From Patescibacteria group bacterium (GTDB lineage: Bacteria; Patescibacteriota; Patescibacteriia; JAQUQO01), in NCBI GenBank assembly GCA_028716045.1, contig JAQUQO010000001.1, positions 192,942 through 256,941 of the forward strand: a stretch of DNA of 64,000 bases, read 5' to 3'. The notes under the pieces are model-generated. The model saw only the letters and a program-made list of their open reading frames with translations. It was not told the DNA's origin and did no database searches. This document shows positions 9,269 to 50,988 of this stretch, in pieces (the first letter of the stretch is position 1; each line of letters opens with the position of its first letter). The position numbers and the translations under genes are program-made.

Positions 9269-9326
9269 CTTGACCCGTCGGTCGCGACCGACGGGTCTTG
9301 ACGAAATTGTCAAAATGTGATATATT
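9269..9326 (+). promoter_or_regulatory. Hairpin-promoter module, copy A: cTTGAC-[gacccgtcggtcgcgaccgacgggtc]-TTGACG-17-TATATT
   Basis: Perfect 26-bp palindrome 9272-9297; -35 at 9298-9303; -10 at 9321-9326. Confidence 0.6.
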
Positions 9327-19519: not shown

Positions 19520-19577
19520 CTTGACCCGTCAGTCGCGACTGACGGGTCTTGACAAATCCTTCAAAACATGCTATGAT
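19520..19577 (+). promoter_or_regulatory. Hairpin-promoter module, copy B: cTTGAC-[gacccgtcagtcgcgactgacgggtc]-TTGACA-17-TATGAT
   Basis: Perfect palindrome 19523-19548; consensus -35 and -10 with 17-bp spacing. Confidence 0.6.
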
Positions 19578-23315: not shown

Positions 23316-23400
23316 CTTGACCCGTTGGTCGCGACCGATGGGTCTTGACCAGTCAGTCGCGACTGACTGGTCTTGACAGATTTTTAGGGTTTGTTATAAT
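23316..23400 (+). promoter_or_regulatory. Hairpin-promoter module, copy C. Tandem double hairpin (23319-23344 and 23347-23372) sharing TTGAC units, then TTGACA-16-TATAAT.
   Basis: First hairpin preserved by two G-T wobble pairs on the + strand. Second hairpin perfect. -10 at 23395-23400. Confidence 0.6.
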
Positions 23401-27839: not shown

Positions 27840-28250
27840 ATGTTTTTATTTATTAATACAGCCGAAGAAGAGAGATTACTGGCGGGGCTGATTTCCGCTA
27901 CTGGAACAATTTTGAAAGCCGCGGAAATTAAGGAAGGTGCGGAGAGAAGGGAATCGTTGTTAGGGTTGGTTGATAAATTATTATTGGCCAGCAAATTTTT
28001 TTCCGAAAAAATAAAAGGAATTATCGTAGTGACCGGTCCGGGAAGATTTAGCCGTTTGCGGTCAGCTGTTGTTTTAGCCAATACTTTATCTTTCGCTTTG
28101 GGTATCCCCGTGGCTGGAATGAATTTGGAGGAAGTGAAAAATCAAAGCGGTCTTATTAAAAAGGGCATAGCCAAGATTAAAAAAGGAGGGGATACGGTAG
28201 TCGCCCCTTTCTACGGCAAAGAGCCAAACATCACCCGCCGGAAATCTTGA
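27840..28250 (+). CDS. tsaB: Short TsaB (YeaZ)-like protein (t6A biosynthesis partner)
   Basis: IIVVTGPGRFSRLRSAVVLANTLSFALGIPVAG matches the TsaB N-domain GPGSFTGLRIGI..A.GLA region. Confidence 0.55.
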   Translation: MFLFINTAEEERLLAGLISATGTILKAAEIKEGAERRESLLGLVDKLLLASKFFSEKIKGIIVVTGPGRFSRLRSAVVLANTLSFALGIPVAGMNLEEVKNQSGLIKKGIAKIKKGGDTVVAPFYGKEPNITRRKS

Positions 28251-28303
28251 CACGTCGGTCGCGACTGACGTGTCTTGACAAATTCAGCTTTTTATGCTAT
28301 ATT
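28246..28303 (+). promoter_or_regulatory. Hairpin-promoter module, copy D: cTTGAC-[gacacgtcggtcgcgactgacgtgtc]-TTGACA-17-TATATT. The tsaB stop codon lies inside the first TTGAC.
   Basis: Palindrome 28249-28274 closed by one G-T wobble on the + strand; -10 at 28298-28303. Confidence 0.6.
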
Positions 28304-37703: not shown

Positions 37704-38381
37704 ATGGCAGGAGGGGATAAAAAGTTTAATCGCCAGTCGATTCGTTTAAAAAATTATGATTATAGTGAATCGGGATATTATTTCGTAACGATTTGCGTAC
37801 AAGGTAGTAAATGTTTATTTGGCGAGGTGGTTAATGGTGAGGTGATATTAAATAGTATTGGCGAAATGATTAAAAAATGGTGGCTGGAATTAGAAAATAA
37901 ATTTTTCCGCGTTGAATTAGATAAATTTATTGTAATGCCGAACCATTTTCATGGAATAATAAATATAACCATAGGGATTGTAGGGGCAGACCTGCGTGTC
38001 TGCTCTAATCTTAAAAAGGGCGAACACGTAGGTTCGCCCCTACACAATCGCGAACACGTAGGTTCGCCCCTACACAATCGCGAACACGTAGGTTCGCCCC
38101 TACACAATCGCGAACACGTAGGTTCGCCCCTACATGATATTGTAAAATGGTTTAAAACAATGACGACGAATGAATATATTAAAAATGTTAAACAAGGCGG
38201 TTGGCCGCCATTCGATCGGAGATTATGGCAGCGCAATTATTGGGAGCACGTAATCCGTACCGAAAAATCATTAAATAATATTCGTGAATATATACTGAGC
38301 AATCCCGAAAATTGGAGTGGCGAAGCGGAGGATTTTAATGTATTTGTGGGTAAATTTATTGTTAAATCCGCCGCTTTATGA
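37704..38381 (+). CDS. REP-associated tyrosine transposase (RAYT / IS200-like TnpA_REP) with an in-frame repeat insertion
   Basis: YYFVTICVQG ... MPNHFHGII (HuH) ... RNYWEHV (catalytic Tyr). Decapeptide HVGSPLHNRE repeated about 4 times. Confidence 0.8.
   Translation: MAGGDKKFNRQSIRLKNYDYSESGYYFVTICVQGSKCLFGEVVNGEVILNSIGEMIKKWWLELENKFFRVELDKFIVMPNHFHGIINITIGIVGADLRVCSNLKKGEHVGSPLHNREHVGSPLHNREHVGSPLHNREHVGSPLHDIVKWFKTMTTNEYIKNVKQGGWPPFDRRLWQRNYWEHVIRTEKSLNNIREYILSNPENWSGEAEDFNVFVGKFIVKSAAL
38021..38140 (+). repeat. 3.8 tandem copies of a 30-bp unit (cgaacacgtaggttcgcccctacacaatcg), each containing hairpin gcgaac-acGTAG-gttcgc, embedded in-frame in the RAYT gene
   Basis: Read directly; unit length 30 = 10 codons. 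Confidence 0.9.
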
Positions 38382-45840: not shown

Positions 45841-45996
45841 ATGTCACAAGACAATCTCATTAAATTAGAATGCTCGGAATGCAAAAGGGTTACCCATTTT
45901 TCTAAGAAAAATAAAAAAACACTTAGAGAGCGTTTAGCGATGAAAAAATATTGCCGACATTGCAAAAAACACACACCGCATAAGGAAACAAAATAG
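45841..45996 (+). CDS. rpmG: 50S ribosomal protein L33
   Basis: MSQDNLIKLECSECKRVTHFSKKNKKTLRERLAMKKYCRHCKKHTPHKETK. CxxC...CxxC and KNxxxxPxRLELKKYC pattern of L33. Confidence 0.85.
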   Translation: MSQDNLIKLECSECKRVTHFSKKNKKTLRERLAMKKYCRHCKKHTPHKETK

Positions 45997-46026
45997 TCGA
46001 TGACTATAAGCCGATAGCTTATAGTT

Positions 46027-46097
46027 CTCGGGGGGTTCGTATAATGGTAGTACAGGGGTCTCACCCGTCAGTCGCGACTGACGGGTGTCTCCAAAAC
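46027..46097 (+). pseudogene. Partial 5' copy of tRNA-Trp (acceptor through anticodon loop) with a 25-bp GTCGCGAC-core hairpin (46063-46087) inserted in the anticodon loop
   Basis: ctcggggggttcgtataatggtagtacaggggtctc + acccgtcagtcgcgactgacgggtg + tctccaaaac; the flanking tc(tc) is duplicated. Confidence 0.6.
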
Positions 46098-46101
46098 TTT
46101 T

Positions 46102-46353
46102 ATGTATTATATTTATATTCTACATATAGAAGGGATTAAGGGTAAAAATTTTTATATTGGTTATACTGCGGATTTGAAAAATAGACTTAAGGAACATTTA
46201 CTAGGGAGAGTTAGAACAACCAGAGGTAGAAACCCAAAATTAATTTATTTTGAAGCTTATGGTGGTAAATATCTAGCTTTAAAAAGAGAAAAAGGTTTAA
46301 AAAATAGTGGTTCCGTTTATAATGCCTTGTTGAGACGTTTAAGTTTAAAATAA
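46102..46353 (+). CDS. Small GIY-YIG nuclease-superfamily protein (YhbQ/UPF0213-like)
   Basis: YYIYILH..GIKGKNFYIGYTADLKNRLKEH..G.....RGR.P.L.Y.E......AL..E..LK matches the YhbQ-type GIY-YIG pattern. Confidence 0.7.
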   Translation: MYYIYILHIEGIKGKNFYIGYTADLKNRLKEHLLGRVRTTRGRNPKLIYFEAYGGKYLALKREKGLKNSGSVYNALLRRLSLK

Positions 46354-46359
46354 AAACTC

Positions 46360-46433
46360 GGGGGGTTCGTATAATGGTAGTACAGGGGTCTCCAAAACCT
46401 CTAGCGTGGGTTCGATTCCTACACCCCCTGCCA
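46360..46433 (+). tRNA. tRNA-Trp (anticodon CCA), 3' CCA encoded
   Basis: Acceptor ggggggt/accccct (G1-U72), anticodon loop ctCCAaa, T-loop ttcgatt. Confidence 0.75.
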
Positions 46434-46448
46434 GAATTAATTAAAAGT

Positions 46449-46658
46449 ATGAATCGAGAAAATATTAATTCAAGCCCAGAACAAAAGAAAGAGTTAAGGA
46501 GGTATGTTTACACGGACCATAAGATTGAAAAGGTTATTTTTGAATGTGAAGCCGGGGATATTCTAGAAGCCGATGAGTTGTATAAAAAAGCCACTGGCAA
46601 TGATTCAAGTAAGCAAGCTTACGTTGGCATTCAGATTTTGGAAATAAAGAAAGAATAA
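46449..46658 (+). CDS. Hypothetical small protein (69 aa)
   Basis: ORF starting just after the tRNA; the track ORF 46374 would overlap the tRNA, so the later start was chosen. Confidence 0.4.
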   Translation: MNRENINSSPEQKKELRRYVYTDHKIEKVIFECEAGDILEADELYKKATGNDSSKQAYVGIQILEIKKE

Positions 46659-46708: not shown

Positions 46709-47656
46709 ATGTTCAAATCAACATTTGAAAAGCCCGCCAAGGGGGAGAAGCGACAGGAAAAATTTGCGGAGTTGATTAAGAATATCGCGGCGGAGACAAA
46801 TGAATATCTCAATCGCTTTATTGAAGACGAAAGGGGTAAAAATATCGTCGGGGAAGACGGGCATATTGAGATGCGTTCTTTTTGGACAAAAAAGGGCGGA
46901 CCGTTTGCTAAAACCGGAGAGGGGAGCGTAAGCGAAGACGAAGATTTTGTCTTAGAGCGCCGAAAAATTTTCAGCGGAATTTGGAATGATGACGGTAAGG
47001 AAGATAAAAACATTAAAGATTATTACCGCGATACTTTTAATTGTGGCACCGAAGAGGAAATGGTGAAACAGTGGAGCAAGAATCAGGAAAAAAGCTACGG
47101 GGCGTTGTTGGAAAAGGCGCTTTTGAGTATTTTATATAAGGCCCTGCGCAAGGATTTCATTGTGGTTCATTCCTCGGTTTACGACGATTATGCCAACGGC
47201 GTGGATTACGTGATTGTCAATAAAGAAACGGGCGATGTGGCTTGCGCTTTTGACGGGGTTAATGACGATAAGGGAGGGGAGAGATTTGAGAAAAAAATAA
47301 AAAAAATCAGGGATAAATCAAAAAAAGACGGAGCGGTATTGAAATACGGAATTACTTTTGAAAAATCTGATGGTGGGAAGAAGCTGGTTAAAAAGGAACT
47401 AAGCGGCATTCCGGTTTTTTGTCTGTCAATTTCCCGCGACGAACTGGATAAATTATTGGGCAAGATGAATTATGATTTATCCGGCGGTTTATCAGATGAG
47501 GAGGCAGAAGTTTTCGGTAATTTGATTGAATTGTTAAAATCGCAGACGGCGGATTTGGAACATGCCGGTTTATCGGAAAAAGTAAAAGATAATCTGGCGA
47601 AGTTTAAAATTTCTTTGGCTAAAATGGAGGAGTCAGCTGCGAAAAAGAGAAATTAA
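46709..47656 (+). CDS. Hypothetical Lys/Glu-rich protein (315 aa)
   Basis: ORF; no family recognised. Confidence 0.5.
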   Translation: MFKSTFEKPAKGEKRQEKFAELIKNIAAETNEYLNRFIEDERGKNIVGEDGHIEMRSFWTKKGGPFAKTGEGSVSEDEDFVLERRKIFSGIWNDDGKEDKNIKDYYRDTFNCGTEEEMVKQWSKNQEKSYGALLEKALLSILYKALRKDFIVVHSSVYDDYANGVDYVIVNKETGDVACAFDGVNDDKGGERFEKKIKKIRDKSKKDGAVLKYGITFEKSDGGKKLVKKELSGIPVFCLSISRDELDKLLGKMNYDLSGGLSDEEAEVFGNLIELLKSQTADLEHAGLSEKVKDNLAKFKISLAKMEESAAKKRN

Positions 47657-50927: not shown

Positions 50928-50988
50928 ACAATATCACAAACTTAGAAATTTGTCAAGGCCAGTCAGTCGCGACTAACGGGTCAAGCCC
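50928..50988 (-). promoter_or_regulatory. Hairpin-promoter module, copy F (minus strand; degenerate hairpin, TTGACA-17-TATTGT)
   Basis: Reverse complement reads cttgacccgttagtcgcgactgactggccttgacaa...; weaker -10. Confidence 0.4.

Follow-up and report, generated by a model that had tools for sequence, protein, structure and literature searches.

Why should a small nuclease gene lie between the first half of a tRNA gene and an intact copy of that same gene? The question is raised by one locus in a stretch of 64,000 nucleotides (nt) from the genome of a Patescibacteria group bacterium (assembly GCA_028716045.1, contig JAQUQO010000001.1, positions 192,942 to 256,941), here called the window, where an open reading frame (ORF) for an 83-amino-acid (aa) GIY-YIG protein is preceded by a 5' piece of tRNA-Trp and followed by the complete gene. 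Our preferred answer, to which we give a probability of about 0.6, is that the locus holds a copy of a compact selfish cassette which resides in the tRNA genes of Patescibacteria, enters them at the anticodon and makes good the tRNA that it interrupts. A sequence-only reading of the window had seen here the trace left when an element integrates into a tRNA gene and regenerates it, and that view is supported by related sites that are empty (32 of 59), by tRNA relics that track the gene (5/5 filled against 5/54 unfilled sites) and by a locus, L027, in which a resident tRNA-Trp is found split.

The interrupted tRNA-Trp copy and the intact gene

On the plus strand, the 5' relic (46027 to 46062) comprises 3 nt of flank and nt 1 to 33 of the gene, is identical at 36/36 positions to 46357 to 46392 and breaks off at the first anticodon base (canonical position 34). 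It is followed by a perfect, GC-rich palindrome of 24 nt, ACCCGTCAGTCGCGACTGACGGGT (46063 to 46086), which separates positions 34 and 35 of the relic's anticodon, measures 26 nt once C46062 and G46087 are included and is flanked by a 5-nt direct repeat, GTCTC (46058 to 46062 and 46087 to 46091). Beyond the palindrome the relic continues as GTCTCCAAAAC (46087 to 46097, plus strand), in which GTCTC, a repeat of nt 29 to 33, leads into CAAAAC (nt 34 to 39), the remaining anticodon loop and the first base of the 3' stem strand; the likeness to the tRNA stops at 46097. The nuclease gene, predicted to be of a minimal, Slx1-like or UPF0213 type (Pfam PF01541), occupies 46102 to 46353 on the plus strand, stop codon included, and the intact tRNA-Trp(CCA) of 74 nt (46360 to 46433, plus strand) begins 6 nt past that stop codon. 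Only this downstream copy is called as a tRNA by ARAGORN and Rfam (57.9 bits, E = 3e-11 in the Rfam tRNA search), neither of which makes a call on the upstream relic, in agreement with the earlier view that a fragment stands before the ORF and the complete tRNA-Trp(CCA) after it. The duplicate that had been drawn from 46027 to 46097, running from 3 nt before the gene through the anticodon loop, also holds, with 36 nt exact and a continuation to nt 39. The palindrome had been rightly described as perfect and as lying in the anticodon loop, but it is 24 nt long and not 25 bp; the duplication at its flanks is likewise real, but it is the 5-nt GTCTC instead of tc(tc). Its interpretation as a target-site duplication is plausible, with GTCTC flanking the palindrome in 12 of the 15 relics of the window type; another lineage has TCCA, and tandem insertions repeat the target.

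The direct view of an insertion is provided by L027. This locus has the full form, in the order 5' relic, palindrome, intact tRNA, ORF, palindromes and 3' relic, and its two relics are mutually base-paired, with three compensatory pairs (4-69, 27-43 and 29-41) that set them apart from the intact tRNA. Since the halves are mutually complementary and represent an allele that differs from the intact tRNA, a resident tRNA-Trp was split by an insert that carried another allele. A palindrome-capped 3' relic after the intact tRNA is also present in L002, L006, L020 and L025, and in L006 and L020 the relics derive from an allele other than that of the functional tRNA. L006, from Moranbacteria, has the palindrome of the window at the same relic position. 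Two tandem cassettes each are found in L025 and L028, their copies belonging to different subclades and, in L028, being only 49% identical. The mirror arrangement of tRNA, ORF and palindrome plus 3' half occurs in L022, L027 and L100; these mirror forms and a tRNA-Arg case (L031) nest inside the Trp clade of the protein tree, and relic architecture tracks protein subclade. Finally, L030 contains tandem relic-palindrome-ORF units that are identical at 253/254 nt, which shows that unequal recombination takes place between the direct repeats; run in reverse, it would remove a cassette without a scar. A different kind of repetition was seen in L080 (4120 to 4433), where tandem pseudo-tRNA units with a period of about 113 nt lie between the ORF and the intact tRNA, each made up of tRNA-Trp nt 1 to 36, a palindrome replacing nt 37 to 53, a T-loop remnant and an AT-rich spacer.

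Recurrence, empty sites and ghosts

The arrangement is one member of a widespread, recurring module and not a one-off. Public data hold about 54 homologues of roughly 83 aa that are 59 to 73% identical, and in the first nine contexts, wherever a tRNA adjoins a GIY-YIG gene, it starts 3 to 7 nt past the stop codon and is tRNA-Trp in every case but one, a tRNA-Tyr, a pairing that is kept despite differing wider synteny. A scan of species-representative genomes, for which a narrow alignment was used and in which the peptide patterns bias the sample toward close relatives, gave 49 loci; among the 27 at about 46% identity or more, tRNA-Trp lies beside the ORF in 24 and tRNA-Arg(CCT) in one, and the distant GIY-YIG relatives had no tRNA linkage. 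Over all fetched loci, 29/39 close homologues (84 profile bits or more) adjoin a same-strand tRNA at distances of -13 to +35 nt, namely 27 Trp, 1 Arg-CCT and 1 Ala. For the other close homologues, a further relic or a second cassette intervenes, a contig end cuts the locus, or the gene is in rRNA. The last case is L035 (520 to 774), where a close homologue lies within 23S-rRNA-like sequence on a contig assigned to Bacteroidales by binning; a 15-nt inverted repeat (ctggcactcaatttt / aaaattgagtgccag) encloses it.

Upstream of the ORF there is nearly always the 5' part of a tRNA with one or two GC-rich palindromes, the exceptions being L016, L021, L024 and L028, which have no relic 5' of the ORF. 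Across the module, the partial copy nearly always includes the anticodon loop, and the palindrome with its short direct repeats usually breaks that loop between positions 34 and 35. The relic is 100% identical to the local tRNA over 32 to 39 nt in eight loci, the window included; three further loci have a nearly identical relic, and about five a clearly diverged one. In most loci with a relic, 0 to 11 nt separate its end from the start codon, a distance that rises to about 30 nt in L011 and L032. In L091 (495 to 746), the reading frame runs on without a stop into the tRNA gene, where nt 8 to 10 of tRNA-Trp form the TAG that closes it, so that ORF and tRNA overlap by 10 nt. The tRNA-Tyr-linked relatives have the same architecture and the same 34/35 break. 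More distant small GIY-YIG genes stand directly upstream of tRNA-Tyr (L069, L078, L128, L134 and L143), of tRNA-Thr GGT (L116, L097 and L032) and of tRNA-Ala (L039), all falling in the same tRNA-Thr/Tyr/Thr-rpmG-tRNA-Trp cluster, and L134 has three small GIY-YIG genes inside 1.3 kb. GIY-YIG proteins of about 75 aa from Patescibacteria and Saccharibacteria (L037 to L056; e.g., L038, 3001 to 3228) form a clade apart and lack a tRNA partner.

The distribution of the cassette was assessed in an independent sample drawn with the L33 protein of the window, which is encoded just upstream of the relic by rpmG (51 aa; 45841 to 45996, plus strand; Pfam Ribosomal_L33, E = 1.4e-15). This sample contained 80 metagenome loci, 59 of them with tRNA-Trp 3' of rpmG, and the comparison with empty sites that had been proposed from the sequence alone came out as expected: in 32 loci rpmG is followed directly by tRNA-Trp, with a gap of 3 to 157 nt, in 22 another gene intervenes, and 5 carry the cassette. 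Relics of the local tRNA are present at all 5 filled sites but at only 5 of the 54 unfilled ones (p = 5e-5), the latter count coming from a scored screen; exact matching of 12 nt gave 2/54 and undercounted diverged relics. Three loci (L143, L102 and L116) are ghosts, that is, they have relics and no ORF, and L143 retains a palindrome and a 3' half after the tRNA. The relics at unfilled sites look like footprints of lost cassettes. The cassette is thus found in a minority of related genomes and is elsewhere absent, sometimes with relics left behind; with 32 sites empty, 5 filled and several reduced to ghosts among 59, this variable occupation of a conserved target is the pattern expected of free-standing homing endonuclease genes. 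The tRNA-Trp alleles closest to that of the window (68 and 66 of 74 nt) have no GIY-YIG gene between rpmG and tRNA-Trp, and L088 and L090, among the loci with the most similar tRNA-Trp, are empty sites. An exact 49-nt probe from the 3' part of the window's tRNA-Trp found no match in metagenome contigs. Many relatives have an unannotated ORF of about 118 to 150 aa between rpmG and tRNA-Trp, sometimes together with ORFs of about 350 or 520 aa (L066 to L068, L076, L078, L089, L124, L128, L142 and others, with a 143-aa version in L002); the window does not have it.

The strongest rival to a selfish cassette, though an unlikely one in our judgment, is a resident host gene, that is, a vertically inherited housekeeping or repair nuclease in an rpmG/tRNA-Trp operon. 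On this account, the relics would arise by local duplication and unequal crossing-over and be kept similar by gene conversion, and the palindromes would be regulatory or terminators. Local tandem duplication is indeed demonstrable in L030, the position after rpmG is kept in many lineages, ORFs are intact in nearly all loci with a ratio of nonsynonymous to synonymous substitution rates (dN/dS) of about 0.1, the protein has no DNA-binding domain and no viral carriage, and the Slx1-like lineage to which it would belong is considered mainly vertical (PMC1564403). A resident gene does not, however, sit easily with 5/59 filled sites, with ghosts that lack the ORF, with the same architecture at tRNA-Tyr or with mirror forms and a tRNA-Arg target that nest in the Trp clade. 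Nor would it account for two cassettes as divergent as 49% identity standing in tandem before a single tRNA, or for the relic halves of L027 being an allele other than that of the intact tRNA. Over 299 pairs, the similarity of the GIY-YIG proteins was also unrelated to that of L33 (Spearman -0.09), a comparison that is only suggestive in that L33 is too short for a reliable host phylogeny.

The nuclease, its transcription and the palindromes

The 83-aa protein had been assigned to the GIY-YIG superfamily by eye, and PF01541 matches it at residues 1 to 69 with 43.8 bits (cutoff 22.6; E = 3.2e-11). Tyr5, Tyr18, Gly20, Arg28, His32 and Glu51, which are positions of the catalytic motif, are unchanged across 31 homologues. 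The family profile searched against the PDB found 1zg2 (E = 2.6e-7) and 1ywl (E = 9.5e-4), both UPF0213 proteins and the nearest solved relatives, as well as SLX1 weakly, so that the label "YhbQ-like" given earlier was correct. An AlphaFold2 (AF2) model was confident over the full 83 aa (predicted local distance difference test score, pLDDT, of 92) and formed one domain; with it, Foldseek placed 1zg2 at rank 1, Slx1 chains at ranks 2 to 9, I-TevI at rank 10 and UvrC at rank 15. Judged from profiles and the model, the protein is a minimal Slx1-like (UPF0213/YhbQ-type) domain and not an I-TevI-type homing enzyme. In a survey of the superfamily, minimal stand-alone domains form a prokaryotic Slx1-like lineage that has no auxiliary domains and is distinct from the homing-endonuclease/UvrC lineage, of which a C-terminal catalytic Asn is characteristic (PMC1564403). 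The alignment of the 31 homologues, a sequence alignment made without structure-based mapping to UvrC or I-TevI, contains no invariant Asn. NCBIfam and PADLOC gave no match to the protein, and PHROGs gave a marginal one to "GIY-YIG homing endonuclease" (E = 0.008). The dN/dS value was found in each pair that allowed an estimate and reflects purifying selection, and the protein is therefore functional.

The proposal first made for the transcription of the gene is not supported. The hairpin had been suggested to supply the promoter, but the relic copy has GTCTCC where a -35 box would be expected, and the ATG is just 14 to 15 nt past the palindrome. A scan of the plus strand from 45872 to 46295 found no promoter-like site, i.e., none before the ORF or the relic, and there is no terminator-like site between rpmG and the ORF. 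At sites without a cassette, a -10-like box precedes tRNA-Trp in only 4/54. With no local promoter and so few promoters before tRNA-Trp, the ORF is probably transcribed from rpmG, and expression by read-through on an rpmG/tRNA-Trp transcript is the most likely arrangement. Downstream of tRNA-Trp, two plus-strand ORFs at 46449 to 46658 (69 aa) and 46709 to 47656 (315 aa) match no Pfam or NCBIfam family, consistent with the earlier remark that secE-nusG is absent there.

As single-stranded DNA, ACCCGTCAGTCGCGACTGACGGGT folds at -13.1 kcal/mol (z = -3.6). Its core, GTCGCGAC, is present in 7 copies in the window against 0.3 expected, and the 24-nt core of the relic palindrome is identical to the copy at 19524 to 19547. 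The six further palindromes, each of 24 nt (9273 to 9296, 19524 to 19547, 23320 to 23343, 23348 to 23371, 28250 to 28273 and 50958 to 50981, with a tandem pair at 23320 to 23371), read CTTG, palindrome, CTTGAC(A/G), with a 4-nt repeat of CTTG (CAAG for the reversed copy). The right-hand CTTG belongs to a TTGAC(A/G) -35 box, with a TATAAT-like box 16 to 17 nt further on in the four plus-strand copies checked, and these six copies look like insertions into, and regeneration of, promoter -35 boxes. Outside the window, CGCG-centred GC-rich palindromes were found in 6/15 GIY-positive but 1/65 GIY-negative L33 loci (p = 1e-4), and in GIY-positive loci 38 of 42 palindromes lie within 150 nt of an ORF, although no more than about 12% of the sequence is so near. 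The window also encodes a 225-aa protein resembling a repetitive extragenic palindromic (REP)-associated tyrosine transposase (RAYT) (37704 to 38381, plus strand; NCBIfam NF047646, 58 bits against a cutoff of 80); its ORF overlaps the next gene and has no GTCGCGAC palindrome on its flanks, and it may be the mobiliser of the palindromes or unrelated to them.

It is conceivable, if improbable, that the palindrome is the real partner of the nuclease, in a two-part system like REP/RAYT in which the nuclease spreads or maintains palindromes and tRNA relics are merely permissive landing sites. The tight clustering with GIY-YIG ORFs across genomes would fit, as would the repeats resembling target sites (GTCTC or TCCA in relics, CTTG at promoters, and repetition of the target in tandem insertions). 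The palindromes shift in sequence between genomes while keeping their palindromicity, and the fold is that of Slx1, which cuts branched and hairpin DNA. Yet six of the seven palindromes of the window are far from its sole GIY-YIG gene, GIY-YIG enzymes are not known as bacterial transposases, the RAYT-like protein could be the mobiliser instead, and the idea by itself accounts neither for the strict tRNA adjacency nor for the split allele of L027.

There is little chance that the relic and hairpin act as a functional RNA, whether a tRNA-like decoy, an antitoxin or a leader for the nuclease mRNA, with the nuclease acting on tRNA-Trp and not on DNA. Such a role might be read into a relic that nearly always retains the anticodon loop and ends close to the start codon, into the tandem pseudo-tRNA units of L080, which recall repeat-RNA antitoxins, and into a TrmH fusion in the protein lineage that hints at RNA metabolism (PMC1564403). 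However, imperfect copies of the hairpin have 17 G.T and 18 A.C mismatches on the sense strand, and the lack of a G.U excess argues for a role at the DNA rather than the RNA level. The hairpin also keeps its relic position whether the relic is 5' or 3' of the ORF, four loci do without an upstream relic, and relics range from identical to badly decayed. Conventional causes, namely an integrase-type island with att duplication, a group I intron or split tRNA, or an assembly artefact, are scarcely credible: tRNA genes are well known for integration that leaves partial duplications, and those of Patescibacteria carry group I introns (PMC13011429), but the whole insert is about 330 nt with a single 83-aa ORF and no tyrosine or serine recombinase gene, an Rfam scan with E values up to 10 found no intron family at the locus, a complete tRNA stands downstream, and the layout, which is present on two long assemblies of the source genome together with the protein and recurs in more than 25 independent assemblies, is therefore not an artefact.

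Proposed movement of the cassette and known systems

The preferred reading of a selfish cassette can be put into a scheme. The full element would be bounded by palindromes and carry the GIY-YIG gene and an intact tRNA copy. On entering a resident tRNA gene at the anticodon, it would leave two overlapping relics (about nt 1 to 40 and 27 to 76), while the carried copy would maintain the supply of tRNA-Trp. The insert would end in tRNA sequence on both sides, so that every tRNA-Trp gene would provide homology for copying-in by recombinational repair, probably stimulated by a break from the predicted nuclease. Recombination between direct repeats could then remove one relic, giving the 5'-relic form of the window or the mirror form, remove the ORF, giving ghosts, or remove everything, giving empty sites. 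The ORF would be co-transcribed with rpmG and tRNA-Trp, and the RNase P cut at the 5' end of the tRNA would set the 3' end of its mRNA. The Slx1-like fold and the lack of a DNA-binding domain suggest a DNA structure rather than a long sequence as the target, and candidates for cleavage are the palindrome as hairpin or cruciform, or the folded anticodon arm. In a bolder version, which we advance tentatively and at well under even odds, this would be a new kind of mobile element in which a structure-specific nuclease, with palindromes marking the ends, targets the anticodon at 34/35 by DNA shape and overwrites the resident tRNA with the carried allele, so that tRNA genes move horizontally among Patescibacteria; in this genome, the palindromes would also have spread into -35 boxes (CTTG, palindrome, CTTGACA).

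Several observations weigh against a selfish cassette. Insertion, patchy presence and recombination can be read from the loci themselves; the action of the nuclease, its substrate, its cleavage of DNA and the route of transfer we infer from sequence comparison. An 83-aa domain with no DNA-binding module is unlike known site-specific homing endonucleases, and Pfam, the model and Foldseek agree that the protein is a catalytic core with no sequence-specific module of that kind. The survey cited above regards the Slx1-like lineage as mostly vertical repair enzymes (PMC1564403), and strong purifying selection is equally compatible with a host function. The intact tRNA retains the presumed target, which leaves self-immunity unexplained. 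A right-hand relic is found in just 4 of about 28 standard loci, though the full-element scheme predicts one; the window has none, and since its left-hand relic matches the local tRNA exactly, this locus offers no proof of a foreign origin. The shortness of L33 limits what can be said of host descent. No near-identical pair of genomes that differ by the cassette alone was found, and viral contigs, the candidate vectors, contain neither a relative of the protein nor a copy of the palindrome. The nearest relatives, recognised through a neighbouring 260-aa tetratricopeptide repeat (TPR) protein (L059 to L064; 62 to 67% identity), are on contigs that end about 60 to 570 nt past the TPR gene, just before the tRNA cluster, so that the site is not covered; these ends may mark places where repeated tRNA pieces and palindromes broke the assembly.

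In its logic the cassette is a selfish gene of the homing type, from which it departs in its palindromic ends, in the unusual lineage of its enzyme and in replacing a tRNA gene. Insertion of an endonuclease gene that leaves a truncated duplicate of its target was reportedly described for Allomyces atp6 by Paquin, Laforest and Lang in 1994. In such fungal mitochondrial insertions, as here, the endonuclease ORF brings a replacement gene piece into an essential gene, which thereby remains whole, and the displaced part stays as a relic, but the targets are organellar protein genes and the endonucleases are larger and rich in domains; the present cassette breaks a 74-nt tRNA gene at the anticodon, has a palindrome capping the relic and exists in 5'- as well as 3'-relic forms. 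Truncated copies of atp6 and atp9 have been noted in endonuclease-rich mitogenomes (PMC4162613). The closest parallel among homing endonucleases is SegB, a free-standing GIY-YIG enzyme encoded in the tRNA gene cluster of phage T4 (PMC2330249). It likewise lies among tRNA genes and outside introns, and it spreads through a break in genomes that lack the gene and copying of the gene with its flanks. Unlike the present protein, SegB is phage-borne, belongs to the I-TevI-like lineage and has a DNA-binding part; here, an 83-aa Slx1-like core is encoded on a bacterial chromosome, cleavage is predicted only, and half-tRNA duplication and palindromes accompany the gene.

Within bacteria, stand-alone UPF0213/YhbQ proteins (1zg2 and 1ywl; PMC1564403) share the minimal domain, the catalytic residues and the absence of an auxiliary domain, and for that family we found no report of tRNA-gene linkage, half-gene relics or palindromes in the open-access literature. 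GIY-YIG ORFs in non-intron insertions of rRNA genes of the candidate phyla radiation (CPR) are sparse and were judged to be outside a homing context (PMC11270868). These share with the cassette the phylum, the superfamily and an ORF in a structural RNA gene that has no intron, and L035 with its inverted repeat resembles them, but they lie inside rRNA and have no duplicated gene half that restores the host gene. Islands and prophages that target tRNA genes also insert there, regenerate the gene with sequence borne by the element and leave a partial copy at the far end; in contrast to the roughly 330 nt and either half left here, they use a tyrosine or serine recombinase, span kilobases and restore the 3' part. 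REP/RAYT systems resemble the palindromes in being short, GC-rich, dispersed in intergenic regions, specific to a genome and tied to one small nuclease-type gene. RAYTs, however, are Y1 (HUH) transposases and REPs are usually imperfect and have no flanking duplications, whereas the present palindromes are perfect, have flanking repeats of 4 to 5 nt and are linked to a GIY-YIG gene. GIY-YIG genes with half-tRNA relics were not found described in the open-access literature.

If the reading as a selfish cassette is true, selfish nuclease genes would have a third means of occupying an essential gene without the death of the host, namely bringing a spare copy of the gene that they break, which differs both from self-splicing as an intron or intein and from a position next to the gene. 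It would also provide the first biological context for minimal Slx1-like GIY-YIG proteins in bacteria, and the pairing of nuclease and palindrome is amenable to in vitro work, with a protein of 83 aa and substrates of 24 nt. For the Patescibacteria, it would account for unannotated pseudo-tRNA fragments and perhaps for assembly breaks beside the tRNA cluster, and it would imply horizontal exchange of tRNA alleles within a phylum whose genomes are very small.

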